A DNA stretch of 63,938 nucleotides, filler included, from Dugesia japonica (taxonomy: Eukaryota): the NCBI GenBank assembly GCA_001938525.1. It is 6 parts of 6 records of this genome, joined end to end, with 100 filler letters (N's around TTAATTAATTAA, not from the genome) between each part and the next. Parts side by side here need not be neighbours in the genome. Positions count along the whole stretch, not along the records: positions 43,590 to 55,772 come from MQRL01497324.1; 5 more parts are not named here. The stretch is one strand, 5' to 3'. The notes beneath the pieces are model-generated. The model made no database searches and was not told where the DNA came from. It worked only from the letters and a program-made list of their open reading frames with translations. Position numbers and translations under genes: made by a program. How positions within the stretch are numbered: position 1 is the first letter of the stretch; each line of letters opens with the position of its first letter. This document shows positions 1,268-63,938 of this stretch, piece by piece.

Positions 1268-1314
<47 letters not shown>

Positions 1315-1349: not shown

Positions 1350-2049
1350 TAATATTTTATAATTCCATCGAAAAACAAAATGTGAGCAGTTTTGAAGCGA
1401 GTTGAAATTTTTTTGCTTGATTGGGAATTACTTTTTTTAAAAAATCTCTTATTTTATATATATATTACAATGTCATTTTGTTTTAGAATATATATTTTAT
1501 GCTTAACTCCTTTTCCAAATCTAACAGATAGAAAATTGAAATTCGATTGAAATTTAATAACTGCATTGGGAGTTCAAACTTGAATTATCTGGAAGGATTG
1601 AATTCTGATAGACTGAAACTATGATTAAAATTTGAATCGGGTTGAAATTTTTAATTTCAAATTTTCTCAGAAGAAATTTTTTTAATTAATTTTGTGGTAG
1701 ATTCTTCTTCCGTTTATATTGTAGACGACTACGCGAGATAGGGCAATTATCCACGAGAATCTGATTTCCAACGGCAATTATCAGAATTGGTAATTGTTGT
1801 ACTGAGGGGTAGCCGATGTAATAGATGGAGATTGTCTATTATAATTGTTGATTAGGCTGAGTTAATTGTTGAATGTTTCTTTAAATTGGATAATTAACCG
1901 ATTTTGGTCGATTTGAAATTTGTTTTTCAAAATATTTGTTTAATACATAGATCAAAGGTAAATTTAATTTTTATGAAATTAAAATTTTAAAACGAAAGTT
2001 CTTTTGTTTACATAGTAAAGATTAAATAAATCACAAGATATTAATATTA

Positions 2050-6404: not shown

Positions 6405-9400
6405 TATGAGTTTAAATAATGCCCATATGGTAAGCTTTTATTATTTTCTTTCCAAACTCGTTTATCTCAATTATTAGTCAAAGCTACCTTAGGTTCAAAG
6501 AAACTATATAATTGATGGTTCTTTGTTCCAATCCGAAACTGGTACACTGAAACCGATTGATTGTTGTTATAACAATCTAGATACGATTGATGTGTTAAAT
6601 TAGTATATTTTAATGGTATTCCTTTTGCCTTCATGCTTGTTTTTTCACTAAGGAGACTATAGAATTTTTGTCTTAGAAAAACTCATTCCTTATATTTCAT
6701 TCCCTTATTCTCGTCTTTGAATCTCCCTACTACTGAGTTAAAGTCTTTGTTATATAATGTATGACTTGTGATATAGTTTGAAGTATCTAATAATTTATCT
6801 TTTACCATTGATTACAATAATTTTTCCAACTTAATGTTTTTTAGTTCCAAGAAAACGCTATCAGTATCACCAGCTACAATATCTATTTCACAACTAAGTT
6901 GTTTTCTATATTGTTCCAACTCAATTTACTGTAGCTTAATTTACTCAATACACTCTTAATTTACTCAAGTGAAGTACTGTTTGACCGATATAACTTGGTC
7001 GATCCAGGCAAAAAATTTCTTTATTGAGTAAAACTTCTATTAGGTCATCATCTATCTTAATAGTTCTTTTGAATCCAGGCTTGGAGGTATAGGTCATCAA
7101 CTTTTTAGCCTAATTAAAGAGCCGGAGATTCAAACATTTTTTCAAATTTTCCACAGACTTTCCGTAAAGACTGTTGCTCACCAACTTATAATAATTTTTT
7201 TCCAATTCCAATTTGCTTTGAAATCTTAATTTTGTATTAATATCTATGTATTCTTTGAAAATATTCCCCTGTATAAAGTTCACAGCTCTGTATATTGTTG
7301 TTATTTTGACACCTAATTTTATATACATTTGTAATAGCCTTCAGTATACTACATAATTATGTTTTGGGTGATGAGTTAACATAAGTTTTTTCACCTTCAA
7401 CCCTGGTGCACTTTGATGTTCGGCTGCCACTGGTAAATCACTTAAATAATTAAGGAGCTCATTTGGAATTTCTATGTCTACTTCTACAGTGTACCCATGC
7501 GATAAACAATCCTTATTTTTACATTCATCTAATATTTGTTCTAATTCTGTGTGAAAGTCTTTGTATGGCAGTTTCTGACTTAATGCCTATCCATATAGAT
7601 CGTTTATGTCAATGTACAGTAAATCCGTATTTTCCTCACTAGAGACATAGTGTTTGTTAACAAACGTTAAGCCTCCTCTGATTCCTCCCTCGAAAAATGT
7701 GTACATATCATTGTCTGTAAGTAAATCAATTGGTTCATTCAGTGTCATCAGGCAGATGCCCAACTCATTCCCGGAATTCCAAAGAAGTTTAATGGTTACA
7801 GTCTATTGTGTGCTATTGATTTGGCTCGAAACTGTTTGAAAAAGCCTGCCAACAGAAAGACATCTAACTTTAGATAGACCTTCATTTATTCCAATAAATT
7901 CGTACATCCCATGATTTCAAACATTTCCAAGGCCTTCTTATATGCTTCTTTATTGACATCATTCCACCTTGGAAGCTATGACAATGTTTCCTCCAAAAAT
8001 CTGTAAACTGGTTGCAAATTCATATAGGAAAATATCCTTTGACTTGACAATCCTATCATCACTAAATTCATTTGCAGTTAATGGTGTTGTTTTGATGGTT
8101 TTAACAACAGCATCCAATGAAGAGTTTATAAATTGATAATAATCAATAAACTTTATCGTTGTTTTGATAATGACGTGCAGTTAAACATAGAAAATTTTCA
8201 CTTGTTGTTGGAATACATGAAATATCTCAATGTTGAAATTTACCAAGTCCATATTTCAAAATATCATGTAGATCATATCCTCTCAAATTATGAAACACAA
8301 CTGGTAATTCGTATCTTATTTGTCTGCTTATGTTACAGTTGTTACACGCAGCTCCTAGAAATTTTCCTGTAAATTGATCATGGTCACGAACAAGATTAAC
8401 AATTTGCTTTCTACATAAATGGCAAATAATTGATACTTTAAATGAAATTTCCTCAATTGCTGATATTTCCATTTTCTTTTTACTATTTCTTTCATAATAT
8501 GGATACACTATATTATTATTTAGTTCTTCAATACAAAGTAGAAATTCATAAATGCAATCATAACTAATAAATTGATGATATTTGACATCATTAGTAAAAT
8601 TATTGTCCAGCAATATTCCAGCAGAAATCGTTACATGTTTGTGTTGATAATCTGGATCCTTTTCCAATACTGAATCGAAATCAACATAAATAACAAACGG
8701 TGGCGTTATAGTTTTTGAATAATTTGTAAAAAATTAATTCTTTTTCTGTTGGCATGGTGTACAGTGTATTTCCGGTCTGTCTCCTCTCACAAATGGCTTC
8801 ATGTGCATCAAATGTCTTTTTAATTCGAAATCCATTAAGGCAATTTTGACACCATATTGACTGTATTCTTACACCATCTTCTTTTACGTCTCTATTCATA
8901 AGCCCATTTAAATTTATTACTGCTGTGTAATAATATTTGTATCCATCTTTAAGTAGCAAGAAATCTATTTTTATTCCATTTTCAACCTTAAGCCTATGTA
9001 TTATATCTAAATTTGGGTATTTCATAACCACTTCTTCGTCATTATCTTCAACAATATTTTGGTTCTATGACAGTACATTGATAGCATATCCTGGATTTTG
9101 TTTTTCGAATTTTGGTATATTCACTTCTTCATCAAATATGAGTTCTCCAATAAACTCTTTATATTTTGAAGCTCGATAATTATTCTTTTTAACTACATCT
9201 CACTTAAGAATTGCAAGAATGCTATACAGAAAACATTTATTATCATTTTTTTGAATATTTAAAATTGACTTCTTTTTCACAAGGTTTCTGGAGTTTTTAT
9301 ATAACTGCTTCATGATAGTCTGCTGATGTCTGATACCTTTGTGATCTTAAAGTTTATCTCCAAGATACGAGATAATGTCCAACTAGACCCAAGTTCGTTT

Positions 9401-15560: not shown

Positions 15561-18500
15561 TTATGGAATCCGAGTGAGCAGTTTATGTTGTTTATGTTGT
15601 CTATGTTGTTTAAAAATTTTTGAAAAATATTTTGGTCGAGATTTTTACATCAATCGATGCAGAATTCAATGGAGATTATTTTTTATAAATAACAATTTTT
15701 CGAAAAAATCATTGCTCATCATTTTACTATATAACCATGTGTATTTGATAGAGAAATTTTCACTGATTCTTAATATATATAAACCTAAATATAAACCTAA
15801 AATCGTCAAAGTTTATCCGAGATGAAATATTTAGGGTTTTGAGGTGAAAAATTGCAAATTTTGAATTTTGAGGCTTAATTTTCTGTGTACATAGCTCATA
15901 TGGTTTCAAATTTGGTATTATTTTACACAGGAGGAAAATGTGACTGTACAAAGTTAAAACATAATCTCGGTAGAAATGCTTCTTAAAGAAGATATACAGC
16001 TGTTCTTCTGAATTTGGTAATGTTTTCGAAAATTAAAAAGTATTTCAAAATTGGTCAAAGAGGTATCTAATAAATAGAGGATTTTTACTGATCAAGATAA
16101 ACATCACTTAAAATCGTTAAACTTAATTTTGACAGAAAAAATTTGAAAGAACATGGTAAAAAATCCCGAAGATGCTTAACCGACACAAATAAAAAATTAT
16201 TTTTTATAATTTTCATTCAAATTTAATAATTCAAGTACTATTAGATAGAGAATGTTTTACTGATCAAGGATATATACAGTAGAAATTTGTAAAATTAAAT
16301 TACTTTGAAAAAAGTTAAACGTTTTTAATTATCAATTATTAATTAAAAATAAAAGGTATCTCAAATTTATTTAATATAAAAGCTTTGATCAAAATTTTGG
16401 TTTTTTTATTGATATTGGATAACNATTCGATATTTCGACCTTGTCTTTGTCAGGAATTGACTTCTTTAATTTATTCAATATTTATGTTTAAAATAGTAAT
16501 CATTTTTGAATTTATTTATTTTTATTAAATTTTAATTGGTTAATTTTAATTCTTATTATATATTTAATTATTTAATTTAATTATTGTAAATTATATTTAT
16601 TTTAGGATTGCTTTCTTTGATTAGTATTTCTTCATGTTTTATATCTCAAATTTAATTATAAACCAGTCTATTTGATAGAAACTTTTATACTGATTACAAA
16701 TATAGTAACCTAAAATCACCAAACCTTATAGATAAAAGTTATATTGAAAAACAAGTACTTAATTTGGGATTCCCCGAGGAACATAAAATTAGGATGACAA
16801 TTTATTCGGTAAGGTCAAATTTTGGTGGTATTTTAAATTAATTTAGATGACAATTTTACTTTGCACTAGTTCTCATCAATATTCTGCACTCTGTACACAG
16901 GATTTCAATACTCAGTGTTCTGATCACTAGATTTCAGTTATCAGTGTTCTGCTTACTGTATACTGATATTTAGTTATCAATGGTGTTCTCACTCTTTAAA
17001 GGTCTTTTCTCATCACCAATGGTAAATTTACTGTTTAATTAGTATTTAATTTTTTAACCTGTTCTATATTTTTACTTGTAATTTTTTAATTAAATTAGAT
17101 TTCGTATATTTTTTTAATAAATTGTTCTATTTTTTATCGTTAAAATTTAATTAAAGTTTAATTTATAATATGAATTTTTTATTAAGATTGATTCATTGAA
17201 ATAATTTATAATCATTTATTGAAATATTTGATTGAATAAATTAAGTATGGTGAATCGATTAATTTTAAATGTGTAATTTGATTGAAATTAGGCTTTTGTT
17301 GGTAAATTGAATTATGTACTGAATATATTTTGCCATATTTGTTTTATATTTATGTATTAAGTTTCAAATGATAATAAGAACTCATTGTTTATTTTATTGA
17401 ATACATGCTTAATTCCATTACAATTTAAGTTCAATATAGATTTCAACATGAAAATAATAGTTTTATCTAGTGAAATATATGTATTCTTTTGAAAAAATTC
17501 TTCACTATTTGCTTTTATCTTTGTTTGCTTATTGGTTCCTTGCTTGCTCATTGGCAACCCTGTGTGCACCTTGGTTTTCATGGGTTTAATTTTTTTTAAA
17601 TACCAAATTATCAATAACTAAAATCAATCTTTTGGCTATAACTTATAATTATACGGTTTCGTTAATGACAACAGGAATTTCACTATTGGAAAATAATGGA
17701 CTTATCAAGGTTGAGAACCCCTGTGTTAACTTAAAGCGTGTTGAACGAAAGAAGCTTATGAACGCAAGATATTTGATCAAATAATTATTTAAGATAAATT
17801 AATAAAAGTTTTAGAGAAGATTGTGAAGTAATCAGCTTGTTTAAACTAATAAATTTTATGGATAATTTTGTAGACAATATCACATTAACTATTGGATCCA
17901 ATTTAATTATTATTATAAGATATTATTATAAATAAAACAAAGTTCCAGCCTCAGATCATTTAAAAATTTCTATTTATAAAAAAATTAACAAAATATATTT
18001 AAAAAAATTAACATTTTGAATAAAAATTTGCAGATATATTTTAACAATTCTTTTCTAGTTTCATTCGGATTTATCAATGATATTTAGTAATCTAACTAAT
18101 TATTTAATCCAGCCATAGAAAAAAGAAAATTTGCCGATTTCCTTTCCTAAATTTTTTGAATGAGATTTATTTTAAAGAGCTTTAAAAGAATGGGTAGCGG
18201 TGATAAAAAATACAGATTTTATTTCGTAGATTTTTAATAAATCTTGATTAGAAAGTTTTGATTTACAAATAGTCTGATTTTAAGAAAAGATTGTAAATAA
18301 TTAAATAATTTGAATTTCATAAATTGTATAATTGATCAAATGCTGATTGTGTGTTTGTATAAACAAATCAAAACGGTTTGTGCAGTTTTTGATTTGGTTT
18401 GACTTGTCTTATTATGCTGATACTTTTTAGTTTGTATTTTTTAAACCAAGGTGTGTGTTACTTAATGATGATGTATGTTTTATGGCATAGTATTCAGATT

Positions 18501-34620: not shown

Positions 34621-35003
34621 TTTTAACTTATTCAGTTTTAAAACNNNNNNNNNNNNNNNNNNNNNNNNNNNNNNNNNNNNNNNNNNNNTTAATTAATTAA
34701 NNNNNNNNNNNNNNNNNNNNNNNNNNNNNNNNNNNNNNNNNNNNTTATTATTGAAGCAATTTTATATTTGTTATTTGAAATTAATTATGAATGAAAATCA
34801 TGATAATAAATATGAATCCGCTAATATTGTGGCAGCATTCAACACGGACTCCATAACAGACCGGTTGATGCCCAGTAGTATTTGGGAAAATCTATTAGGA
34901 AATGCTNNNNNNNNNNNNNAAGTAAAAGGAATCACTAATAAGAGAGAGCACGAACGACTGGTTACTTGCATGAGAGAAGATATGCTGGAAAAAATGTAGA
35001 AAC

Positions 35004-35210
35004 ATTAGAAATTAATTCAGATCTCTTTTCAAAAAATGGCTGTCTTAATTTATTATATTTTTGTTCGATTTTTAAAATTTCTTCACTGGCTTGTTCGTTC
35101 AACAAATCAACTTCATTTTTGAATTTCTTAATTTGTTCAATGATTTCACCCATATTAAAATTAACTCCACCATTTAATTTGACATCTTGAATTTTTGTAT
35201 CAGAAGCCAT
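35004..35210 (-). CDS. SET: SET/TAF-I (NAP family) histone chaperone, N-terminal exon only
   Basis: [32 protein letters not shown] closely matches the animal SET dimerisation helix ([31 protein letters not shown]). The downstream IPNFW exon was not found. Confidence 0.85.
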
Positions 35211-43440: not shown

Positions 43441-45139
43441 TTTACTTTTTAAATTAATAGAAAAATATTTTTGTTTTAATGGTGATTTTNNNNNNNNNNN
43501 NNNNNNNNNNNNNNNNNNNNNNNNNNNNNNNNNTTAATTAATTAANNNNNNNNNNNNNNNNNNNNNNNNNNNNNNNNNNNNNNNNNNNNTATAAACAACT
43601 TTGGACTAAAGTAACATTATATTACTGATTTCAAATAAAACAATATTACCGATTATGTAAATAATTTTGAAAATTGATAATTATTCTGTGAATACTTTGA
43701 CATTTTTTGAAAATTGGTAATAATGTTTATGAATTATTATAATATTTTTATAAATATTTACGTTTTTCAATAACGAGCCTATGTATCTCTCTACTATAAA
43801 TAAAGAGCGTAATCTCCTTTTTACCACCATTATTTGAAATCTTAAAAAAGGTCTAAGACTTCTTAAGTTACAGACCATAAGATCAAAATAATAACGTTAA
43901 TATTATATTGATATTTTTAAAGTAATTGTTAAATTTGAATAAAGAATTTTTAAAGTAATTTTTTCACTTAATTTTATAAGGTGACTATATAGTTTATTTA
44001 TTGATATATCATTTATATATATTAAACATATTAGGTTCAAATAAGAATCAAATTATCAGTGTGTCTATAAGAGAAAATTGTACGGATTTCATTCTATAAA
44101 TTGAAAGAGATCACGTAAAAATCGTTGATTTGCCTTTGTGAAATCCCAAAGACATCTCAACATATTGATTGATTGCATCAATTTGATTAAATAATTAAAA
44201 ACACGTGGGTATTGATAATTTAGGGTATAAGCAAAGTACATTCAGTGTTTCATTATGATTGAAAAATGAAGAAAGCAAGATTCATTTTTAAAATGTTTTT
44301 AATATTTTAAAATTTTATTTAGAATACCATTATAAATATGAATCCAATTGTTGAGAATTACATAATATAACATGCATACACAACAGAACATAACAGATAA
44401 TAATCAGTATGATCANCCCCAATCCAAGCAATTCAACAAAGATTCGCAATAAGGCAATTAGATAATCAATTTGATCAAAAGAAAAGAGAGAAAAAGAAAG
44501 CAATGAAATTTATTTTATTATTTATTTGACTTGATCAATAACATTTATTGTGTTATTTTAATTTATCTGATTTTCTGACATTTATGTTAATTTATCTAGC
44601 TTAATACTGTAATATTTTCGGACATTTATCTGACTTGATATAATTTATTGTAATGATTAATTATGTAAATAATTGAAAAGATATCCGGTATAGATTGATT
44701 TTGGAATAATTTAATTATATAATAGTTGATTGACTATCAAAATTATATGATAACTAATTTTACGAATATTTATTTTATGTATATGTATGTAAGTGTGTAT
44801 GCGTATGCTTTGAAAATCAGTATAAATACTGATCAGTTTGATGAAAAAATCAGACTTTTTAAATTGAGAAAACCTCTCTCTTTGGGTGGCTTTTCTCCTT
44901 TTAATAACTTATAACGTCTTCGTGTAAGGTTATATAATCCCAAAAATAAATATTTACAAGGTGTTTATTTATTTTATTTATATTGGATCGAATACAGTAT
45001 ATCACATATTTATATTTTGGTAATATATATCTTGTATAATATCGTACTTACACACACAACACTAAACAACTAAAGAAAAGCAGTTACAAATGTTAACAAA
45101 AGTGAACCAGTATTTTTGTTGAGTTAAATACCCCACACA

Positions 45140-45341
45140 ATGAAAAGAAAAAACAATAGAGTAATTTTGATATTTAATTAATCTAATTTGATATTTTCAG
45201 AATAATGAGAACGTTATGAAAAATGAAAATATTATGAATAATGAATTGTTGATGAATTTTTTGACAAACCAAGAAATTAATGCGGATATTATGAATCATC
45301 ACAATATTATGCAAAATAATAATGTAATGAATTTAAAATAG
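45140..45341 (+). CDS. Candidate two-exon Asn/Met-rich micro-ORF (53 aa)
   Basis: ATG at 45140; 40-nt GT-AG intron 45161-45200 with CTAAT branch; MKRKNNR|NNENVMKNENIMNNELLMNF...NVMNLK*. Confidence 0.35.
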
Positions 45342-46249
45342 GTTAGTTATTTTCAATTTTTTAAATGCAATTATGCTGAAAAAATAATTAAGTTTTAACT
45401 TTCTTGTAATAACTTGAACTTAATTTGATAATTAGGTGTAATAATTTTTGGTTCCATAAAAAACAGAACAATGAAAAAAACAGAACAGGGAAGAAACAGA
45501 ACTNGGAAGAAACAGAACTTTGAAAAAAAGAACTCATATTTTTATTTAAATTAGGTACGACGTAAATTATTTAAAGTATTTTATTTTATTATTTTGCATG
45601 TGTTATATTGCTTTTATGCCATAAGTGCAGAATGTGTGCACGAGAATTACTCACACGAATATGGCGCACATGAAAAATTGCTCAAAGTTTAATTTATTAA
45701 TTAAAAAACGTTCCTTAAATATTGAAAATACTTATGAAAAATTATTTGAATTAAAGACTTTGTTGTTAATATACTTTAAAGTATTTTTTGTTTATTTTAT
45801 AATTTGTTGGGGTGAATTACCGGTTAATGAAGAAAAATAATAGACCGAAGGATGAAATTCAGAAACAGAGTAGAAGAATTTAGAATGGGATAAAAACTAT
45901 GGCACCAATGTTTAAGAAAACCAAGGAAAAGATACATGACAGAAAGAGAATGTCAAAAGGAATAAATTCGAACCCGATCATTTATGTTAATTAAGAGAAA
46001 ATAGAATTTATCATAAAAAAGCAGGAAAGTTACTATTAAAAAAATAATTAATTAGTAAAGAAATATTAATTAATTTTATGAGAAAATAAATTAAAATTAG
46101 TCAAAAAATCCGTTTTTTACGAATAACTTTGCTTAGAATAATCACAGAGACTCGGGGAAGGAAAATCTGGAAAGAAAAAGATCGGGGACATTAAAATTCG
46201 GAAATGAGAAAATCGTGTCATTACCAAGAAGACCCCTATAAGCATCGGA

Positions 46250-46480
46250 AAAACGGGCCAATAAGGGGCTGAAAAATAACAATAGAACAAAGACCCAAAC
46301 ATCACATGGCAATTTAAAAATAGCGGCCAATAAGAGTTCTAAAACTCTACGAAAACTTTGAAAATTAGCACCAGAACCAATGGAAAGCAAGAAATTTGAA
46401 TCAATAATAGCAACCCAAAAGCAACGATGCCGGGTTGTATCAGAAAATCCTATAAAAAGGTCATGTAAATTTAGTCAAAA
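46250..46480 (+). promoter_or_regulatory. CCAAT-array + TATA promoter of unit A
   Basis: Three CCAAT boxes, then GCCGGGTTGT and CCTATAAAAAGG; conserved in unit B (GCCGGGATGT...CCTATAAAAGG). Confidence 0.6.
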
Positions 46481-48156
46481 TAACAATTTTTCATATCATT
46501 AATTACGTTGACTTAGTCACAAACAATTTTCAAATTAAAACACATTCCCATTTNGACAGGAAAAAAAAAGAAATTCTCATCTTGTGAATTCCGATAATCA
46601 GTGTTACTACAAGATATTGACAGAAGAAACCAAAACCGTTGCAGAAAACCAGAAAATTTATTAATAAGTAAGCATGTGTTATTATATGTTCTTTTACTGT
46701 TTAATGTAAGAAAAATGTTTCAAATTAACTATTAATAAAATTATGTCAATAATAATTTTCTAATTTCACTCAACATTTAGATAGTAGAATGCCTATGTAG
46801 ATGATGTCTGCAACTAATGATCACTAGGTGACTACAAATAAGATCGACTGCCATTGATTGTCTTGCGGTTGTGTGTAGATATTCTTTTTGTATCTTCAGA
46901 ATACTAATCGGCATGTGCAGCAATTTGCAAACCATCTGTCAGATCCCGATCACCATTAAAACATAGCAGAAATTTCCCACTAGAACAAATGTTATAAATT
47001 GGTTCTAAGTACATATGACCAACTCCGTCGGAATGACCAAGAAAAACATCCATTATAATTGCATTTAATTTCATGCCATAATGCTATACACTCATCGAGT
47101 GGGATTACACACTCACGCTAGTCAGTAGTTCTGCAAATTGAGATGTCATGTCGATTGGATAAATAGTATTGCCATGCATATGATAGCTGAAATTAATCCA
47201 GTAATAAAAAGCACACAAGCAGTGTGACTACTTGCTGTTGACAACCTACACTATTTCGGAAATGAGTTAATAAATGTCAATTTTCAGCAAATGCGAAAAA
47301 AGATATTACCACCGAAAACATTAGGTATCGTGATGACTATGTTCAGATTTATTGGCAAGAAAAAAAACTTATAAATTACATCGTCGAGGTTTCAGATATG
47401 GCATAATTATAACAACCTATACAGTAAAGCCATCACTTTGGATACTACTTTTTCGCGATATATTTTCTTTTGTGTTGAGTTCATTATTAAATCATTTTAA
47501 TATCTATCATATTTTTTTTGCTATCATATCAGTCAGAACATGTATGACAGTTATTATTTCAATCACCACCTTCATGCAGATTATAATTATCGATAATTCC
47601 ATTTGTTCTCATTTAAGGTCGTTATCACTAATGGGTGGATAATCTTTATCGTATCATGTATCAATTGAGATACCCTAGTTGATACTAGTGTCCAGTTATC
47701 ATCATCTAATAATGTTGACATCGTTAATATTGTAAACGCTGCGTTGCTTTTCAATCAGTTTTCTCATTATTACTGCCAGTACTATTGTTGTCATTATCAT
47801 TATTTGTTAGTAGCATTATTATCATTTTATTATTAAAATATGAGTATCAGTATTAAGATTGCCATATTATTATTTTATTACTTGTTCTATTAATGCCATT
47901 ATGAATATTAGGATTAATATTGTTTTCTTATTGTTAAACCTATCATTATTATCTGAAAAATCGGTATAAGTTTCAAAAATTGATATGGAAAATGCATATC
48001 TCAGCATTCGTATACTTAACTAACTTTTTTCAAATAAATAGCAACACAAGAGGTGTTATCGCTGTCATTCCACCCTTTATTAGTCTACTAAGGAGAATCT
48101 TAGCCACAATCATAGTCACATAAAAATGAAATCATAGTCACATATTTCTTTAGATT

Positions 48157-48342
48157 ATGTCGGCAGAACTAAAGCGTGCTCTTAAGATAATCTTGAAACA
48201 ACGAAGAACAGCACGATTAAAACAGNNNNNNNNNNNNNNNNNNNNNNNNNNNNNNNNNNNNNNNNNNNNNNNNNNNNNNNNNNNNNNNNNNNNNNNNNNN
48301 NNCCCTCTGATTTTTCCAGTGGACATCGACGCAGGAGGCTGA
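48157..48342 (+). CDS. Unit A ORF1: small basic protein of unknown function (contains an N gap)
   Basis: ttag|attATG; MSAELKRALKIILKQRRTARLKQ...PLIFPVDIDAGG; homologous to 52056-52250. Confidence 0.6.
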   Translation: MSAELKRALKIILKQRRTARLKQXXXXXXXXXXXXXXXXXXXXXXXXXXPLIFPVDIDAGG

Positions 48343-48474
48343 AAGCATTAAACATAATGTGTAATCGAATGATAATAAATTTGTTGATTTTCTATTTGAA
48401 TACCTTAAATTTATTTTATGTGTTATATCAACCGCATTCAAAACGTACGAATCGAATTTAGTTTATTTTTTTAG

Positions 48475-48886
48475 TGAATCATAAATGGGAAGTCCTATTA
48501 GATAAAACATCGGGTCGCACCATTTTAGAAAATACACCAACCCACACAATCGAGGTGCTAGGGTATTATCGGACTATTCAAATCTTCACCCCAGAGGACG
48601 CAGAAAATGAGAAAGAGTGGAACGCTGCTGAGCGTCATTATTTTTATACGGTACCGATCGTACCAGGGCCGTATACCATGCGGTTCCAATTGCAACAGTA
48701 AACCGAGATGGAGTACCACAAATTATTCGGCAGTGGCATGAAGGACCTTCGGTAGTAGGTGTCACTACGAACCATCTCCCCCCAGTATACAATTTAACAG
48801 CCTTCGTCCATAATAATTTGTGGAGTATAAGGAATTCGCCCGAAAATATTAATGAGAATACTGCCACCACTTCAAGTGACTCGTGA
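48475..48886 (+). pseudogene. Unit A ORF2: unknown protein with one apparent frameshift
   Basis: ag|TG AAT CAT AAA TGG; (M)NHKWEVLLDKTSGRTILENTPTHTIEVLG...LPPVYNLTAFVHNNL; homologous to 52389-52736. Confidence 0.6.
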
Positions 48887-49052
48887 ATGTTCTTTTTATT
48901 CTGTGCATACAATTAAATAAATGTTTTATCCCGTTGAAATCAGTTTAATTTTCGTATTTAACGTGTGCTTGTTGGCTTACTGAATTAGAACATTAACTTC
49001 GATTCATTATTTTTAGCGGGCAAATTTAGTTAAATTGAACTTTCTTTTGTTG

Positions 49053-49392
49053 TGCATTCCACACTCAACCGTGCTATGGCTCCCACTAAGAAAATACGTG
49101 AAACCGACGAGGACCAAGAGATGACTTGGGACCTGTACCGTCTAGCGAAATGACGATGGGAAGCAGACGTCGCCAATTCCACTAGTAAATTGAAAAGATA
49201 TAAGGCCAAATGCTTCGCTTTTAAAAAGGAAGTCGCAGCCTCACACACCCAAGAGCGGGTTAATTCGCAGAGATAATCTGGTCCCACCATGACCGCGAGA
49301 ATAAACTGGTCAGCGACATAATGCATCTCAAAGAAAAAATGCCTCTTGAACCCCTTATGGTTGATAAGAGTAGTCAAACTACGCGAACGTAA
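49053..49392 (+). pseudogene. Unit A ORF3: unknown helical protein with a stop and frameshift
   Basis: HSTLNRAMAPTKKIRETDEDQEMTWDLYRL...LEPLMVDKSSQTTRT*; homologous to 52961-53114. Confidence 0.6.
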
Positions 49393-50639
49393 TCGCTATT
49401 GTGTTGTTCGTTTCTGTAAATAAAGGTTCTCAGTGTTTAATTTAACAAATAACCAATTTCATATATCTTAAAATCTTTTTTTACAATTATAAATTATNNN
49501 NNNNNNNNNNNNNNNNNNNNNNNNNNNNNNNNNNNNNNNNNNNNNNNNNNNNNNNNNNNNNNNNNNNNNCAGAAATTATAAAAATTCAATTTATTTTCAA
49601 TTCAATAAAATCCATTAAAACATTGAAGAAATGCTCTTCACTTTAATTTATTTCCATGTAAAAACTATGAAACAATTGAAATAATATTTTACTCTATATA
49701 TTTCAATATTTTATATATAGAGAAAGGCAGATTAAATTACTAATCACATTTATCAGCATTTGTTAATATTATAGGTAAAATTCCAAATATATTGAGAAAT
49801 TATGAAATAATTTTATTAGTAAGACTGGAATTATTATATTAGCAAATAATAAGTAGATTAAAATAAAAGAAAATTTATATCAATAGAAAAAATATTTATG
49901 TTGGGGTGAAGAAAAATAAGACCGGGGGCCACGGCCTATTGTTGTAGACAAATATTAACTCGGAAACTTCTCATCAGTAAAGTCTAACAATCAGTGTTAC
50001 CAAAATCGGAAAGAAAGGTAATTGCAAAGAACTATTATAACTAAAATGGCGAGAAAACCATTATTAATGGATCAAAGAAGGAAAGAAAGTGATCGGAAGA
50101 CCACAATCCAACAAATTAAATATTCATCACCATCAATAATTAGGAAAATTATCATAATAATATTAAATACAGGAAAATAGCCAAGAGAAAAAATAAATCA
50201 ATTAAAATCATTATCAATTAAATTTTAATGAAAAATACAGTTAAATTAGTTCTAAATCCGTTTATTGCGAATATCTTGGCTTTGAAAACTCATAGAAGCT
50301 CAGAGCAAGAAAATTTGAGAAGGCCATGTATTAGGGCAACGGGATTTTGCGATGGAAAAATGATGCCATCGTTAGAAAGACCTCTACTGAGATTGGAAAA
50401 TTGAGTCAATAAGGACCTGAAAATAAAAATAAAAAACAAAGAAGCGACCATCACGTGTCACTCTAAAAATAACCGCTAATAAAAGCATTGAAAATCCAAA
50501 AAAATGCAACTACAATACCAATAGAACCAATTAAAAATGGAGAATTTAAATTAAAAATAACCAGCCAATAACAGCAAGGCCGGGATGTGACAAAAATCCT
50601 ATAAAAGGATCGAGAAAATCAGTCGAAAATCACATAAAA

Positions 50640-50726
50640 AACAGAAAAATTCTAATATTTGTGAATTAACAGAAAAATTCTAGTATTTGTGAATTAACAG
50701 AAAAATTCTAGTATTTGTGAATTAAC
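50640..50726 (+). repeat. 28-nt tandem repeat x3 in the unit B leader
   Basis: AACAGAAAAATTCTAGTATTTGTGAATT x3. Confidence 0.9.
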
Positions 50727-51769
50727 CATCTTCGTGTTCGAATTAAGAATCCAACAATAAAAGGAAATTATTTAAGACTTAACCGATTCAAAATATTATT
50801 CGTGAAGTTATAGAAGTGAAAACTAGTGTTCTACTCTAGTAATAAAAGGAGACAGTCAAAAGAAGAATCTGAAACGACCTATTCGCCCGTTCGGCATTCA
50901 AACACAGAAAAAGAAAATATACCAGGTGACTACCCGTTGCAGAAATCTGAAGATCGATATAAAAGTAAATCTTCGGTTATATTTATATTATGTTAAGAAA
51001 ATTTTTGGAAATAAATTTTCGGTTATATTTATAATGAAATTTTTGATTAAAACGAAAACTAATTTTTGGTTATCTTAATTCATGTTAATGAAACTTTTAA
51101 TTCCAGAATAAATTCTCCGGTACATTAAATCCACTTATGATTAAGTCATGTAAATAACCGTTAAAAAATTAAATATTATAGAAATAATTAAGATTTAGTT
51201 AACTTTTATTTGATACAAATGTTACCCATTTTAGTTAGATAAAAATATCTCTAAGTTAACTGTAATTGAGACCCAAGTTAATAATTCCAGTGTTCGAACG
51301 ATGTTCATCGATAAAATCGAGAAATTGTTGAATTTGATAAATACAAAATAAGAAAATTCCAATTTTTGAGAAATGCTGTAATAATTTACCATGATCAACA
51401 AATAAACGGCGAGACAGTGAATAAGTTGTTAAAATTTATTCGTATGCATCCTGGTCTAAATAACCACAGTAAAATTAACTGGAAGAGAAAGTGAATTCTG
51501 ACTCATTCATCGCATCTGATAATATCGAGTATACACAGTTCTACAAATCTGATCATGTCACTAGTTAATATCTGTTTCTAGAATTGGATAAATATGAATT
51601 AGATGCCGAGTAAATTACCGTCTCTAATATTAATACCCACTTTATGGAGATTAAAATTGTTAATATCATTGTCTTCATCGGTAACATTGCGGCTGCTAAC
51701 ATAATATTCGAAAATTAATCATTCACCCTATCGTTGTTACCAATTGTTATTTAGTTATCTGACATTAAC

Positions 51770-51994
51770 ATGAATATAACTAATATTGTACTAATGGGGT
51801 TCCCGTCATTATTTTTATTATTAGTACCATCATTATTATTAACTATTGTCATTATTATCATCCTCATTCTACTAACCTTGTTTATTAATTACATCATTAA
51901 CGACCCAGCATTACTGTGGTTATGTTTAATAATATTAACATTCCGTAACTTTCATGATTTATGGTATAAATGCTATAATAGCAAAGTTGGATAA
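51770..51994 (+). pseudogene. Unit B ORF0 C-terminal transmembrane segment
   Basis: IVLMGFPSLFLLLVPSLLLTIVIIIILILLTLFINYII...LLWLCLIIL; upstream part has stops. Confidence 0.4.
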
Positions 51995-52055
51995 CCGATT
52001 ACCCGACCAAACGGTGAATATATCCCCATAATCTATTTTAAATTAATTTTAGTTA

Positions 52056-52250
52056 ATGCCAACAGCACTAGGAATTAATCTGCGTTGGATCAAGAAACAA
52101 CGTAAGAGCTCTCGATTAAGGCAGTATTTGACCCACATACTATCACGATGGGTGGTAGAACATCCCTACGAGATGGATTTAGCGTATTTCGCCGAAATGT
52201 TTCCCCTGACGAATCATGTGGATTTAGATGCTGAAGATGAATCTTGTTAA
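52056..52250 (+). CDS. Unit B ORF1: intact 64-aa basic/acidic protein of unknown function
   Basis: ttttag|ttaATG; MPTALGINLRWIKKQRKSSRLRQYL...PLTNHVDLDAEDESC*; AATAAA 30 nt downstream. Confidence 0.65.
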   Translation: MPTALGINLRWIKKQRKSSRLRQYLTHILSRWVVEHPYEMDLAYFAEMFPLTNHVDLDAEDESC

Positions 52251-52388
52251 GAACCCCTATCATGTTATTAATTGTTTAAAATAAAACTTTGTATGAATAG
52301 CCGTGTAGTTTTGGGAGGTGACAATTTTTATTTGTTTTAATTTTAATGTGTTAAATTAAATCACTTTTCTTTATTCATTATCTGTAGA

Positions 52389-52736
52389 ATGGAATCCATA
52401 TGGGAGAGGATTATCGACCGTTGAACTCGGCGTATCGTTTTTCGACCCCATAAGAACCCACATAGTTGAGATGCGGGTATTCTAGCCAACCAGTTTAACC
52501 TACCTCCAGTAGAAGCCATGGTAGCCCGAATACAGGAATTTGGTGAGGGGCAAAGCTACCAAAATTGGACGGGGCCCGATCGGAGCCTAGTAACTCCCTT
52601 CCAATATCAACGTCCAGCCCTACCCCCAGCTGTGCAGGCGTTCATCACCAATTTACTCTTGGGTGTAGGGGAACCCTCGGATGCCGAGGACTCGGAAAAC
52701 ACCGCACCCGTAATTGACACTACAGTTAACCCATAG
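52389..52736 (+). pseudogene. Unit B ORF2: unknown protein, decayed 5' half
   Basis: tgtag|aATG; MESIWERIIDR*TRRIV...THIVEMR...LPPAVQAFITNLL. Confidence 0.55.
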
Positions 52737-52960
52737 TGTTCTATATGGTTTAAAGTTTTGTTTTAATAAAATGTATCGTCGTTTCTGAGGCTTATAATAA
52801 AATCTTTTTCTGGTTATTGGTTTGCTTTTCCGTTAAAGGAATAAATATCTGTAATGACTAGTGAATGCCCAATGAGTAACACCAGGTGCGAGAAGTTAGC
52901 GCAATTTACTAGTTCTTTATTTAGTACTGTTTTAATTTCATTTAATGGTATATATTCTAG

Positions 52961-53114
52961 TGCATTCCTCTTTGAATCGCACGGCTGTCCCAACTAAGAA
53001 AATCAGGGAGTCTAGTGAAGATTTGGATATGACCTGGGACGTGTATAAACTTTCTTAGCATCAACCCTCGAGCCATTAATGGTTGATAAGGGTAATCAAA
53101 CATCGCGATCCTGA
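52961..53114 (+). pseudogene. Unit B ORF3 (internally deleted)
   Basis: ttctag|TG CAT; HSSLNRTAVPTKKIRESSEDLDMTWDVYKL...LEPLMVDKGNQTSRS*. Confidence 0.6.
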
Positions 53115-53220
53115 TATCTGTTGATCTACAAATAAATGATTCTTGTTTTATGATTAATTTCTTCTCTCTGAATTATTTGCTAAACTAACTTTTACCTATT
53201 TTAAGAAAATAAATGATCTA

Positions 53221-55043
53221 ATGATATCTCTTACTTTAGTGCCACACATTGTCTTTCCCAATAGCCAATCACGAAAACTGTTATTTCCAAGAATAACAAA
53301 ATTCACAGAAAATGATGATGAAGGTCCAATAGCGTGATTGAAAAGAATTGAAACGTTCTCAGCCACAAATAACTTCGACCTCATGTCAACTTTTGTTTTT
53401 TATTAGAATGCAACTCTAAGGATTTATGGCTAGCTTGTAAATCACGAACCAAAATGGATGACAAATCAACAAGAGATTGGTTCAAATTAAAGTTCGTCAA
53501 AGATAAATCTTTTTTACCAATGATTGAAAATTTCAGTATAATCAGTCAAAAGACTGATGAAAGATATGAAAATTTCGAATTACGAGTAACAAGATCTCAG
53601 AAGGAAATATTCGAATCCGAATTATCAATGGAAGAAATTATGAAACAAGTAATTCAGAAAAGAGTAAAGTTCGGTGAGTCACAGATAAATTAGTTGACTT
53701 ACTCAGAAGTGGCAGCTACAAGGTACAATCCGAGAATTAAGAAAACTGATTTTAAAAGTTCTATCTATCATAAACGTAGGAATAATGAAATTGAAAAATC
53801 ATCTCTAATTGCTGAAAAATTTAATAATTCCAAAAACAGCAGAGAAGGTCAATTTAGAAATATGCCAACAGTTTCCATGAAATTTATTGCAAGGAAATTG
53901 TACAATAGATCAAAAGGACTCCCTCCACCAAAGGAAGCATAATTGAAAAAAGGCTCATGTTTGTGCTGTGGTCTTTACATACGTAATAACTGCCATCTTA
54001 AATCATGTTGCNTAATTTGCGGTAAAACGAGTCACTGTTTTAGAAACGGTCGATTACTCGGAAATCAGATGCATTACAACAATAATTGCGTGAAATGCAT
54101 TTCAGAAGAAAATGACAATGTGGATGAAAGAAATAAAGATTTAAAGATGATCAATCATGATGTAAGCTATTTAAACGAAAGAGACTCGATTGTTTCAATT
54201 TCGTTGATGGAGTCAATAAAATAAAAACTGAAATACAATAAAAACTATAAACGGGATTCTCAGCAATAGAAATCATTTATTGAAGGAAGATAAATATTTA
54301 CGCAAAGAACACAGCTTTGGATAGGACAAAATTAAAAATAAAGCTTACGATAATATTAAATGAGCATCGCAGACAATGATAAATTTAGGAAATAACCGTG
54401 TTAGTGTCGAATTCGAAATAGGTAACGACGTGCTAATAAGGAAAAACCTTCAAAAACGGAAGAAAAATGATTTACTCTATGAAGGTCCTAAAAATTTACT
54501 AACTTTCTAAAACCTCACCAAGTTCGGTTAGAAACACTACAAAGTTCCAGATTTAGAAGAATCGAATGGTTAAAGAGATGTAGTTTTTATGAAAAGGGGG
54601 GAAATAATTACAAAAACTGAAAAATTGTTTAAATACTGTGTTTTAGGATTTAGTTATATTTTGAACTTATTGAATAAATTTGAATATTGAATAAATATTG
54701 AATAAATTTAAAACTTTTGATTTAACTTAACCGAATATGTTGCTTTAGTTATGTATGATGTTTGTGTTGTGCGTTTGAGTAGGTCTGCGTAGAAGTTCAT
54801 ATATGTTAATTTGGTTCTCATTTTTCGCAACTTATTTACAAATGCACTCTTTTATGGTCTGTTAGTATAAATAACAATTGAAAATTTTATTAGTTATCAT
54901 TTTTATAGTTAACTGTACCGTCTTGGTCTTTTGATGATCAAAGACTATGTAAATAAAAAATAGTAACTGGAATAAACGCTTATTGTAATTTAGTTATCCA
55001 TATGTTGAGATACCTTGGGGGATTTGACCAAGATAAGTCAACA
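53221..55043 (+). mobile_element. Internally deleted Ty3/Gypsy element: gag relic, integrase C-terminus, PPT and 3' LTR
   Basis: Gag-like KFTENDDEGPIA*LKRIE; zinc knuckles CLCCG...C and CxICGKTSHCFRN; integrase tail FEIGNDVLIRK...YEGP; PPT GAAAAGGGGGAAA at ~54591; LTR-like segment with TATAAATA and AATAAA ending AACA at 55043. Confidence 0.78.
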
Positions 55044-55872
55044 ATGCGTGAGTTTAATGTTCAAGTAATTAAGAAAATCCCAATATATTATTGTCAATAT
55101 TATATCCTATATATCTTACAATATTTAGTATAGATACAATAATATTGATTATAAATATAGTATATAGTAGACCTTATTAAAATAACTAAAGTTTACTTTT
55201 AACAAATATTTTTATTATAGCTTAATTCTCAATATTACAACTAAAACGTTTTATATATTTTTTCTTTCAGTTGTATATCTGTTAAACAAGAGTTTTTTGG
55301 TGGTTCAAACTGAATTTATTGACAGTATTTTTACTAAATTTTGAGGAAATAATTAAATCACATTTACATATGAAAACCATAAAAATTTAATAATTACACA
55401 AAAATTTTATAATTACTGATAAAATTTTCATAAAATTTTCAGAAAATTTTAGTAATAAAAATGTTGGGGTTTTATCTATGTGGGAGATAAGTCTAGGGTA
55501 ATTGGAATAATAAAACCCCGCTAAGAGTTTAATCTGGTGTCCCTCAAAATTTCCCGATCTTTGGAATGGAGCCGTTGACTCGAAATCCGATTACAAACCC
55601 GCATTCCTTTGATTTGGGTTCCTATTTCATGACACTCGCTTGATTTTTGATTATGCATATTTAGCTGAGTTTATTTAATTACTACTTTAGTTTAAAAATC
55701 AATACCTTAAGTTTTAAAGTTATCAAGAACAAAAAATTTTAAAAAGTGAAAATTATATTCGATTATCCAAACNNNNNNNNNNNNNNNNNNNNNNNNNNNN
55801 NNNNNNNNNNNNNNNNTTAATTAATTAANNNNNNNNNNNNNNNNNNNNNNNNNNNNNNNNNNNNNNNNNNNN

Positions 55873-56885
55873 TACGATTTATTGTTTCAAATGAATATGA
55901 TCAGCAAATTGATGCAATCGAAAGACATGCAATTTGACATTGCACTGGAATGTATAAAAAGTGCAAAGAGTTAATTAAAAAATACAATGAAAATGGATTT
56001 GTATCCGATAAAATTTCAGCCAGAGATGTATAGCTCAATAAATAGAGATGGATCCAGATGAAATCCTATTTCCAGCTGGCACAAGCTTCAGACGACGGAA
56101 AGTGCACAAACAGTTCGACTATGAAAATAAAGAAGAATCATTGACAGATTCAAAAGAAAAATATCGAGTGGAATTTTTTAATGTTTTGTTAGATCAAGCA
56201 GTTATGTTATTGACTGCACGTTTTGAGCAAATGGAACATCACTTTGGTCTTTTTGGATTTCTGCACAACATCAAAAAAATTGCAGAATTCAACCAAAACG
56301 ATTTGATGAAATGTTGCATGGATTTGAATATTGCACTCACCAATGTATCTGGTTCAGATATTGATCCGAAGGATTTATGTAGTGAATTTCAAATATTTTC
56401 CAACATTGTTCCAGATACTGTTTCGTCTTCTCTTGATGCTTTACATTTTTTATGATCATGGTTTAAATGTCGCTATAACCCTTCATATAGCATTGAAAAT
56501 TCCGATTACTGTTGCATCGGGGAAAAGAAGTTTTTCCAAGTTAAAATTAATAAAAAGCAATTTGAGAACTACTATCACGCAAGAACGTCTGACCAGTCTG
56601 GCAATGATATCTATCGAACGAGATATCGTCCAGTCTCTGAATTATTCACAATTTATTGAAGACTTTGCTGCCATCAAAGCACGAAAAGTTGATTTTTGTT
56701 GCAGGTTTATGACATCTGCACGAATATGTTTGTATATGTCAGCTACTTGTGGATTTAAATATAAATACAGGTAGTTTTTAATAAATTGCATTACTTTTTT
56801 TGTATTTATTATTTATTTTTCTATTTTACTTGGGACCACGAAATTAACTTCACCTAGAGCCTCCCATTACCTAAGGTCAGCTCTG
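55873..56885 (+). mobile_element. hAT transposase relic (ZMYM1-like), 3' half with TIR
   Basis: RKVHKQFDYE, ITVASGKRSFSKLKLIKSNLRTTITQERLTSLAMISIERD; end CCTAAGGTCAGCTCTG. Confidence 0.9.
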
Positions 56886-57801
56886 ACGTAACCATTGATT
56901 GTTTTACAGAATTCATTTAAAATGAAAGCTTCGATCAAAATTTGTTTTTTTGATTTTTGATAATAATTCTATATTTCGACTCTTTCTTCGTCAGGAATTG
57001 AGTTTTAAAAGTTGACTTTAATTATTTTTATTGAAGGAATGAGGAATAAAACAATATGGATGTACGGGTCCAGATGACGGATGAAGGGGGTAAGGAGTAG
57101 GAAATTATAGATACAGTGAATGGAAAGCAGTGAAAGAAGTAAGGAGATTGAGGTGGACGAGAAAGGTAAAGAAAGTAATGTGAGAAATTCATACAAAAAC
57201 TATTGGTGCCTGCAACAGAGAAGCCTTTTAAAGCTATATATTATGATATAGATCATAAGAGTATTCTCAGGGTTTTAATAGTTGTGAAGAACCGGAGAAA
57301 GACCCTTAGTAGGTTTTAAGGATTTTGCAGTGAAATTTATTTTTATGGAGGTAGTGATGAAAACTATGGCATGGATGACAGAGAAAAATGACGAAAAGGA
57401 TTTTTTAGTTGAGGCTAGTAGTGACGGAATTTATTAAAGGCATGGAAGTGGAATGTTTGTTGGAAATGGGTGCAGAATGTAGGATGAAGGAGTGCAAAAA
57501 AATTTGTGGTAGTGCAAGAAGTGATAGACATCGAGGAATTCTTTTTAAGCTTCTGGTTTAAATGGAATGTATATGAAATCTGCCAAGAGTGTTGGCAGAG
57601 AGATATTTTTGAGATAGAGGCAAAATTTAGCAGAAATAACGGAGAGGAATTGCTAGTGGTGGTCATGGAGTTTTGTTAACTGGTATGAAGACAAGAAATT
57701 AGAAGAGATTTGCAGAAGCAATATAAATGTGTTCATGATTGAGACGCCAGACATCGAAAAGACGAACTATATGAAACATAATTTCCACAACAAGAGTCCT
57801 G

Positions 57802-61277: not shown

Positions 61278-62860
61278 AAGGGTGGTGAAATTAACGATTG
61301 ATTAATCAATTAATCGATAAAATATTTAAGCGATTCAAAATTTTTTAATCAGTAATTCTTTGGTTTATTTTTACTTAAGAATTATATTCGGTCTTGTATT
61401 TTTTAAAACAAACCTGTTTTACAATATGAATCATAAATCATAATGTTGTATCAGGTTTGATGTGTTACGCATGGAATGAAAATAACATATCATGAAATAA
61501 AAAGATATTTGTTATTGTTTCCAAATAATAAATTATTAGTTTATTGATTTATTCTTGACTAGCTCTTTCAATAGTAGAATTTTATTTCAGTTTGGAAAGT
61601 ATTGTTGAATAAAGCCGGAAAATAATTGAAACCTTTAACTTTTATTCAACCTTTTACTTCCATTGATGAAATATATATTATTAGGTATTTATTTGTCAAT
61701 ATACATTTAATGAATAAACATAATAATAAATGTTTTACAATTGCAATTATTTACTAGAATAATTGTTGGACATAACCATTGATCGTTTTAAAGAATTCAT
61801 TTAATATAAAAGCTTTGATCAAAATTTTGGTTTTTTATATTGATTTTTGATAACAATTCTATATTTCGACCTTGTCTTCATCAAGAATTAACTTTTTTCA
61901 AAAAAAGTCAATTCCTGACGAAGACAAGGTCAAAATATCGAATTTTTATCAAATACCAATATAAAAAAAACCAAAATTTTGATCAAAGCTTTTATGTTAA
62001 ATGAATAAAAATAAATGGTCATAAAATTAATTAATAAATAATCAAAAATCATTATTATTGTTAATATTAAGGATTAACAAATATACAACAATGGCGAATA
62101 ATGAAAGTAACGTTTCTGTAAAACCTTTAAGCGGAAAGTTGAGCAGGCATGTTGTTATTAAGTTAACTGCTGATGGCAAGGTCGAAGACGGCGACAAAAT
62201 TTTCTGCGTTCACTACAATAAACAGTTTGCTTTCTGTGGTTCAAATACCTCGCTAACCTAACAACTTCAGCACAAACATCCACTGCAGCATCATTAAGTT
62301 GAAGCAAGCGACTGGAAAAAGAGTTCTCAAAAGAAAAAAATAACCAGTTTCTTGTCGTTCCAGTCAAACAAACCTATAAGCGAAAAAGTTTGTACCGACT
62401 TGAAATTTAGTATTGCTTAGCTGATTGCTAGCTCCGGACGTCCACTGACTATTGTGAAAGATTATGACCTACAAACTGTATTACGTATTGCTCTTCCGAA
62501 TCAGACTTATACTTTACCCAGTTGCCGTACAATTGATAATATCATCTATCAGATGTACAACGCGAAACTGGTCGACAATTGGTTGGGCATTTCAAACACA
62601 GCTCGGCTAACACATCCAAACTAAAAAGTAGCCATGTCAGTCTCTCTCGACAGACAGATGAAAACGTGTTCCATAAATTGCAGCAGGATGTGGTAACTCA
62701 TTGGAACAGTACCTACCTGATGTTAGCCAGATTGTTGGATTTCAAAGAAGCAATATTACAGTATCACATTAATCATCCAATAAACTACAGTATACCTAAA
62801 CTGATAGATTCTGATTGGGGAAAAATTACCAAATATATTTCAGTCTTAGGTTCGCTTCAC
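61278..62860 (+). mobile_element. hAT (Ac/ZBED1-like) transposon relic, internally deleted
   Basis: Subterminal ATTAATCGAT repeats; BED FCVH...SNTSLT*QLQHKH, SGRPLTIV, LVGHFKHS, KLQQDVVTHWNSTYLMLARL. Confidence 0.85.
61730..62010. repeat. Palindromic MITE family member (~210-bp hairpin core)
   Basis: 61796-61900 is the inverted repeat of 61901-62005; partial copies at ~5575-5765, 16365-16470, 32860-33000, 33940-34060, 37890-37915 and 56890-57020. Confidence 0.8.
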
Positions 62861-62864
62861 ATGT

Positions 62865-63938
62865 CTTTCACATGTCCCTTAGTAGCTTAATGGTTTGGCA
62901 ATTTGAGCAAATTTAAAAACAAATTTACGGTAGTAATTTGCCAAGCCAAGAAATGACCGTAATTTTTCGGTGTACTTTGGAATTTCCACTTCAGCAATTT
63001 TCTTAATCATACCATTATTAGTACTTATTCCCTCTTTTGATATTTTATGACTTAAAAAATTAAGTTCAATTTTATACAGACTACACTTCTTTGGACTGAG
63101 TCTTAATCCAGGTTTTTATATTCGTTTAAAAACCTCCTCTAGGTTTTTATCGTGTTATGCCACTGTTGTCGCGTAAACCAAGACATCGTCTAAATACGCC
63201 GCGACTCCATTATAAAGGATATCCTCAAATAATTCATGAATGAGACTTTGAAAAGTCGCTGGGACTGTTGACAACTTGAACGACATTCGGGTATAGCAAA
63301 ACTGGCCCTTTTTTGTCGAAAATGCTGTTTTCAAATGTGACGATTCATCCAAGCATACTTTATTATAAGCTTGTCCTAAATATAATGACGAAAAAATGGA
63401 AGCTCCTGCCATCGTATTGAATATGGTTTACGGATCTGCCATGGGGAAACTAAATTTCTCTGTAACTTCATTAATATTTCTATAGTCCTGGCAGATCCTC
63501 AATCGTTTCCTCCTTCTTTCCTACAACTACGAGCGGCGAGTTCCATGGACTATGAAATTTCTTAATTATACCAATTTCAACAACTTTGAGATCATATCAT
63601 CCACTTTAGATTCCTTTTGCATCGCCATTCATCTTGGATTTTGACTTATTGGAGTCCCAACGGTTTTTATACAATGTGTTACCAGATTTGTACAACTTAA
63701 ATCGAAATCCGATGCCATTAAAATAGTACTATTTTTCAATACTAATTCTGTACACTTTGAAAAATTATGGGATCAAAAAATATTTAAAGCCCTTTGTCTT
63801 CTTTCTTCATTCCGATACGTAAAACCTAAGACTTCCGAATCTATAAAATTCAATGTGACTCTCGATAAAAGTTTCAATCCTAAAGCTGAAATAATATTCA
63901 TACCACTAAAAAAACTAAATTAACTACCGTAATCTGGA
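62865..63938 (-). mobile_element. Ty3/Gypsy reverse transcriptase relic
   Basis: SPWNSPLVVV, LRICQDYRKINEVT, TAFSTKKGQFCYTRMSF.L...PATFQ, AYLDDVLVY, KFLSH.I, FLGLANYYRKF. Confidence 0.92.

Follow-up and report, generated by a model that had tools for sequence, protein, structure and literature searches.

Two decayed cassettes with four ORFs each

We analyzed a 63,938-nt stretch of the genome of the planarian Dugesia japonica (NCBI GenBank assembly GCA_001938525.1), made up of six parts of six records that were joined end to end, with 100 filler letters between parts. We will call this whole stretch the window. The part from MQRL01497324.1 (positions 43,590 to 55,772) contains two homologous, decayed cassettes, units A and B, that resemble long terminal repeats (LTRs). 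In both, a TATA box is followed by a leader that lacks ATG and ends with A just before a GT, and acceptor-like sites precede each unit's four open reading frames (ORFs a–d). We propose that one promoter, an AUG-less leader, and alternative acceptors probably provide the start codon of ORF d, and of ORF c in the subfamily of unit A, by splicing the A of the leader to a UG at the beginning of the exon (A|UG). The A before GT and the TG behind the acceptors are a real, well-patterned feature of these units; the assembly of start codons from them is probable but unproven.

The window is AT-rich (16–40% GC per kb), with numerous N gaps and repeat fragments. Our comparisons are based on units A and B within the window, along with mapped reads from RNA and contigs. 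ORFs a, c, and d correspond to ORF1, ORF2, and ORF3 of the initial annotation of this DNA; ORF b is newly added. The features of the two units are:

45805..49447 (+): unit A (3.64 kb), mobile and LTR-like, with termini TGTT...AACA and flanks AATT / AATA
46450..46461 (+): TATA-like box of A (CTATAAAAAGG), inside the promoter-side region that aligns with B
46480..46667 (+): leader A, ATG-free, last letter A; start estimated as TATA+30
46668..46673 (+): predicted donor of A, GTAAGC
46781..47960 (+): ORF a of A, decayed, hydrophobic toward its end, with a tentative start; one plus-strand frame is less stop-ridden
48157..48225 (+): ORF b of A, TTTAG|ATT ATG, which enters an assembly gap; homologue of the B copy
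48473..48886 (+): ORF c of A, acceptor AG at 48473–74 and then TG, frameshifted; the first in-frame ATG is codon 69
49051..49392 (+): ORF d of A, TG|TG CAT TCC, where the acceptor AG is missing; interrupted by stops and a frameshift, with an AATAAA at 49419
49899..53160 (+): unit B, a divergent second cassette; its 3' boundary is uncertain (53160–53265)
50630..50964 (+): leader B, ATG-free, last letter A; estimated to start at TATA+30 (TATA-like box at 50599)
50965..50970 (+): predicted donor of B, GTAAAT
51290..52000 (+): ORF a of B (approximate limits), hydrophobic and decayed
52056..52250 (+): ORF b of B, TTTAG|TTA ATG, open for 64 amino acids; AATAAA at 52280
52386..52736 (+): ORF c of B, AG|A ATG, with a complete start codon; disrupted, and followed by AATAAA at 52765
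52959..53114 (+): ORF d of B, AG|TG CAT TCC, broken, shorter than the A copy; AATAAA at 53131

The two units begin with the same 12 nt (TGTTGGGGTGAA, at 45805 and 49899), and their promoter-side regions (46038–46485 in A and 50188–50634 in B) align at 66% identity. Their end regions, with AATAAA, are also homologous (z = 10.9). In unit A, ORF a is recognizable as one plus-strand frame with 16 stops in 393 codons, versus 27–42 stops in the other five frames; coding on the minus strand was considered and rejected. The hydrophobic part of ORF a aligns between A and B (z = 6.0), which may be compositional. ORF b, which was missing from the initial annotation, is homologous between the units (P = 8e-5) and has its own ATG 3 nt past the acceptor. 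The B copy of ORF b has a basic N-terminal half and an acidic tail. AATAAA is found after each ORF. Such signals are frequent in these units (there are 14 A[AT]TAAA signals within unit A), so the assignment of polyadenylation signals is weak.

We also noticed that the beginning of leader B has three tandem copies of a 28-nt unit (50640–50726). Further CAG|TG sites are found at 51288–51300 in unit B, where an ATG close to the probable start of ORF a lies 10 nt downstream, and at 48318–48321 in unit A, just past the assembly gap. In run X1, the summed contig depth is ~5000 at 45917–46233 and at 49087–49403 (the promoter-side region and ORF d) versus 35–100 over ORF a. X1 depth is not a copy number, and it suggests that the promoter-side region and ORF d are common to many more copies than ORF a is.

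Start codons of ORF c and ORF d

Both leaders end with A before GT, at 46667 and 50964, as the initial annotation had it. The context of the donor is TAATAA(46667)|GTAAGC in unit A and ATAAAA(50964)|GTAAAT in unit B. The two donors are in register behind a common CCGTTGCAG(A)AAA (z = 3.3), which is to say that they lie at a homologous position, with A before both. Given the estimated leader starts (TATA+30), on which these statistics depend, leader A has no ATG where 2.2–2.5 are expected (the probability of none is 0.06–0.10 for leader A alone), and leader B has no ATG where 4.9–6.1 are expected (probability 0.0002–0.0055). Within the window, 313 of 4630 stretches of 188 nt (6.8%) and 53 of 4362 stretches of 335 nt (1.2%) are free of ATG.

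ORF c of unit A begins with AG|TG AAT CAT AAA TGG. If its TG codon is set on the ATG of ORF c of unit B, in the register that was initially proposed, then codons 2–18 have a BLOSUM62 score of +27 (shuffle P = 8e-5), and all 12 of the other registers that we tried score below 0. Free local alignment of the two copies is marginal (z up to 2.2). Directly before the AG|TG of unit A there is a pyrimidine tract (11 of 14 positions, versus about 6 of 14 for the next AG upstream).

ORF d begins with AG|TG CAT TCC in unit B (AG at 52959–60), and unit A has the same TG CAT TCC with TG in place of the AG (49051–54), which agrees with the initial annotation. Units A and B are ~64% alike in this region. 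Across codons 2–23 of ORF d, 5 codons are identical, 9 differ synonymously, and 8 differ non-synonymously (permutation P = 0.00025), and 17 of the 29 differences are at third positions. The shifted frames have just 1 and 0 synonymous codons. None of the 10 codons upstream of the TG is conserved. The coding signature begins right after the TG, in line with the initial claim that the similarity of the peptides begins at the acceptor. The excess of synonymous changes from codon 2 onward, together with the lack of conservation upstream, implies that the protein starts at or before the TG. Met24, which is found in both copies, is excluded as the start of ORF d because codons 2–23 are conserved as protein. 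At both AG|TG sites (48473–76 and 52959–62), adding the A of the leader to the TG would give an AUG in frame with the conserved ORF.

A third, divergent copy of ORF d is carried by six reads from RNA run X2 that match 52991–53042 (these six reads may stem from few molecules). The 30 unaligned letters that are shown for this copy are in exact register with 52961–52990 and begin with TG, so TG is kept in three copies of ORF d. By our by-eye translation, the third copy reads Q-S-S-L-N-R-S-T-A, with 4 synonymous third-position changes relative to unit B.

We propose that units A and B, both decayed, represent two subfamilies of one LTR-like mobile unit. In such a unit, a single promoter would produce a short ATG-free leader. 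The one donor of the leader would be joined to one of several downstream acceptors, and behind each acceptor there would be a short ORF followed by a polyA-like signal. Every ORF would start 0–3 nt from its acceptor. A complete ATG is present in ORF b and in ORF c of B, while ORF d and ORF c of A start with TG and would take the A from the leader. We infer splicing, the choice of donor, the production of proteins from the cassette, and the identity of the units as LTRs. The split codon is probably a by-product, or an economy, of the close spacing between acceptor and start.

The initial annotation had also suggested that the split codon would keep these ORFs silent in unspliced RNA and invisible to ORF finders. 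The split adds little to silencing. Six downstream ORF starts that we checked, including those with their own ATG, are 1.4–2.6 kb from the TATA region and are all behind 21–50 ATGs and 4–9 AATAAA signals. With so many upstream ATGs, the downstream ORFs would depend on splicing whether or not the start codon is split; a scanning ribosome would presumably fail to reach them otherwise. The split codon likely ties initiation to a donor that ends in A, and it is unneeded for silencing unspliced RNA. As for ORF finders, only ORF c of A fits the description, with its first in-frame ATG at codon 69. ORF d should be visible, because it has genomic in-frame ATGs (at 52945 in B, at codon 9 in A, and at codon 24 in both).

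Several observations weigh against our proposal. Of the 334 GTAA[AG] sites in the window, 124 have an A just before them, so the terminal A of the leader says little by itself, and 5–11% of acceptor-like sites are followed by TG by chance (21 of 317 when the middle threshold is used). There are other donor-like sites, at 46706 in unit A (AT|GTAAGA, with no match in unit B) and at 50926 (CAG|GTGACT) and 51150 (CAT|GTAAAT) in unit B. ORF d of A lacks the AG at its start site, ORF d of B has a genomic in-frame ATG five codons upstream, at 52945, and an in-frame GTG can also be read at each of the TG sites. The TG has only two independent origins (ORF c of A and ORF d). In the third copy of ORF d, the letters shown start at the TG itself and the letter before it is outside the shown stretch (the unaligned end is ~40 letters). 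This copy is broken too, with in-frame stops in its downstream unaligned end. Also, an equally good-looking AG|TG at 53238, upstream of a gag-like gene that is described below, turned out to be unsupported, so such sites can mislead.

The RNA reads do not favor our proposal either. Runs X2, X3, and X6 provided 106, 431, and 93 mapped reads, from 6–25% of each run. The depth of the donor bins in these three runs was 0–0.06, and no splice junction was found among the best 15 of 69 joints. All 15 of these joints are from run X1 alone, which covers 30 of 30 bins and may stem from the sample that was sequenced for this genome. Since leader coverage in X2, X3, and X6 is almost nil, the RNA neither establishes nor excludes splicing, and it does not speak for or against expression of the units. 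The start codon assembled as A|TG, as initially claimed, is the best explanation of the anatomy (the codon test, the register, the ATG-free leaders, and the third copy), although no junction read was found.

Other explanations for the TG starts

We also considered that these ORFs might start at a genomic GTG, either as a GUG initiator after splicing to an acceptor farther upstream, or as what a point mutation has left of an ordinary start codon. All of the sites do have an in-frame GTG, the copies are heavily decayed, ORF c of B has an ATG at exactly the corresponding position, and unit A has AG sites upstream (near 48460 and at 49015). However, the GTG of ORF d is present in both units even though they are so diverged there, so its origin by decay would need two identical hits. 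Furthermore, the pyrimidine tract of ORF c of A ends right at AG|TG, and GUG start codons are rare in animals. Overall, a genomic GTG start seems rather unlikely. It is quite unlikely that the exons that begin with TG are phase-1 internal exons, which would be joined to an upstream coding exon so that N|TG is a codon within the protein instead of a start. Such arrangements are known in errantiviruses: in ZAM, Beagle, and idefix, env is attached to either a Gag peptide or a short peptide. And ORF b of B has a donor-like site in phase 1 (AC|GTAAGA, at 52102). But unit A has no GT at this site and the homology of ORF b runs past 52102. Also, ORF c of B has its ATG exactly where ORF c of A has the TG, which identifies this position as an N-terminus.

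Might ORF d simply use an ordinary ATG (at 52945, at 49076, or at codon 24), with AG|TG arising by chance? These ATGs are present, the chance occurrence of TG after acceptor-like sites is not negligible, and the AG|TG at 53238 did fail its test. However, the ATG at 52945 is found in unit B only and the ATG at 49076 (codon 9) in unit A only, so neither is common to both copies; the conservation of codons 2–23 as protein (P = 0.00025) rules out Met24; and the first 68 codons of ORF c of A include no ATG. We view ordinary starts as very unlikely. Finally, trans-splicing occurs in some invertebrates, and a trans-spliced leader, instead of the cis leader, could provide the start at these acceptors. 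This seems extremely unlikely: the spliced leaders of flatworms end in AUG, which would put the TG out of frame, and other spliced leaders end in G, which would give GUG. Also, a cis leader with a conserved donor position is present, and an Rfam search of the region found no match. We favor a start codon that is assembled from the leader of the unit itself.

Identity of the units, known systems, and the rest of the window

Units A and B are most likely long solo LTRs of a gypsy-type retroelement. Unit A has TG...CA termini (TGTT...AACA), and 3 of 4 letters match between its flanks (AATT and AATA), in AT-rich DNA, as a possible but imperfect target-site duplication (4–6 bp would be expected). 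Contigs from X1 skip 45804–49435 and 45753–49435, which joins the flanks without unit A (the ends are fuzzy by ~12 nt). Unit A thus behaves as one insert and has no terminal repeats inside it, as would be expected of a long solo LTR. Unit B is followed by:

53266..54215 (+): decayed gag-like gene, identified by tblastn of P0008; it lacks the first 34 residues of this relative

P0008 is an intact gag relative of 394 amino acids with weak zinc-knuckle matches in Pfam, below the cut-off. Its tblastn match starts at residue 35, at 53266, with 72% identity. Upstream, at 53238–53241, the AG|TG mentioned above has a branch-like CTAAT and a good pyrimidine tract, and it is in frame with gag, 9 codons before the similarity to P0008 begins. 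We rejected it as the start of gag: the Met of P0008 itself is 34 residues before the similarity, and the N-terminus of P0008 matches nothing in 53100–53275 (scores of 12–15, with a shuffled mean of 18.5). Downstream of the gag-like gene there is a purine tract (54592–54602). The DNA after this tract is not similar to the first ~1 kb of either unit (z = 1.8 for A and 1.1 for B), so it is not demonstrated that unit B is the LTR of the gag-bearing element. A matching 5' LTR for the gag fragment within the window was also rejected.

By eye, the region 53266–54602 has, past the gag-like gene, a look-alike of the end of an integrase, followed by the purine tract, with most of pol missing. In run X3, 53266–54602 has low RNA depth from other copies, on both strands. 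An LTR-like stretch at 54606–55100 has TATA-like and AATAAA motifs, by eye, and has no second copy in the four regions that we compared.

That a start codon can be assembled by splicing is already known: in the springer subclade of errantiviruses, the env exon is joined by splicing to an AU dinucleotide, and the junctions have been mapped experimentally for active lineages (10.1101/2023.08.03.551782). The Springer leader has no AUG (PMC13097621). As in these Drosophila elements, the start codon of our cassette would be built across the junction from an AUG-less leader, which both units have (given the estimated leader starts). In contrast to the AU|G split of springer env, the split here would be A|UG. 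It would also serve two short ORFs out of four, for which we found no similarity to env, and the ORFs lie inside a TG...CA unit instead of downstream of pol. Errantiviruses proper have an F-type env after gag and pol. We found no Pfam domain above the cut-off in the pieces of ORFs that we scanned and, within the units, no pol ahead of the ORFs, with sensitivity that is lowered by decay. As we found no env or pol, we do not class the cassette as an errantivirus.

MDG1-group retrotransposons also have small accessory ORFs near the 5' end, sORF1 and sORF2. The accessible part of PMC11952523 reports a short polyadenylated transcript that ends after sORF1 and no evidence of splicing, while the ORFs of our cassette seem to depend on alternative acceptors. 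Burro elements are giant gypsy elements of planarians with long LTRs, accessory ORFs, and an internal region of up to 25 kb, for a total of over 30 kb (PMC6431247, accessible part). They resemble the cassette, by comparison of descriptions only, in their AT-rich host, accessory ORFs, and long LTRs, and a solo LTR of 3.6 kb would fit; none of the domains named in the accessible part of that article was found in the scanned pieces of ORFs. The accessible parts of PMC8532177 and 10.1101/2023.12.22.572568 contributed nothing further here.

The adenovirus major late unit and the accessory genes of complex retroviruses also combine one promoter and leader with alternative acceptors and tandem polyA sites. 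Their ORFs mostly have their own AUG, and their likeness to the cassette is in the layout only. Our search of the literature, which left most subscription papers and the supplementary junction maps of the springer preprint outside its scope, did not find any description of a multi-gene A|UG cassette. The novelty would be that an A|UG start codon serves several genes within a single cassette, for which no homologues were found.

We searched for such homologues in several ways. A Pfam scan of 16 protein pieces found nothing above the cut-off. ORF a of A has no match in Pfam or the PDB, ORF a of B has no match in Pfam, and ORF b of B has no meaningful match in Pfam or the Atlas. In the Atlas searches, which covered ORF b and ORF c of B, the best scores were under 0.9. 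Searching with the first part of ORF c of A against 1.84 billion representatives (phmmer) gave 4 weak matches, and both of the 2 that we examined were unrelated repeat proteins. A word search with ORF d of A, limited to proteins of 48–154 amino acids, found no relative, and neither did comparisons of ORF c of A and P0008 to viral contigs. An 18-nt motif was found at 72 loci in metagenomes, none of them related.

Our broadest reading, which is possible but more doubtful than not, is that a 3.6-kb LTR of an animal retroelement family holds a four-gene unit without detected relatives, that this unit is expressed in the manner of a viral late transcription unit, with a single AUG-less leader, and that several of its genes (possibly including gag, via 53238) start only as A|UG from that donor. 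If this were true, then initiation would hang on the choice of splice donor, and splice-assembled starts would no longer be limited to a single env gene of fly errantiviruses but would also occur in a cassette of several genes, with the codon split elsewhere. It would also mean that a gene can gain or lose its own ATG between subfamilies (ORF c has ATG in B and TG in A), and that four small proteins with no detected homologue are encoded by a repeated mobile unit that the annotation of solo LTRs would normally skip.

Elsewhere in the window, there is a fragment of a SET/NAP-like host gene (relatives of PF00956) at 34962–35210 (-), with its best named matches among animals. ORF fragments at 6467–9064 (-) resemble, by eye, the protein-primed DNA polymerase B of a Polinton-type element. 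Integrase-like and reverse-transcriptase-like fragments at 638–1427 (-) and 62879–63427 (-), also identified by eye, would belong to other gypsy-type elements. A dispersed repeat family has direct and inverted copies at 5567–5740, 16339–16467, 56885–57008, and 61751–61968; the last of these includes a hairpin with 68-nt arms (61831–61968).

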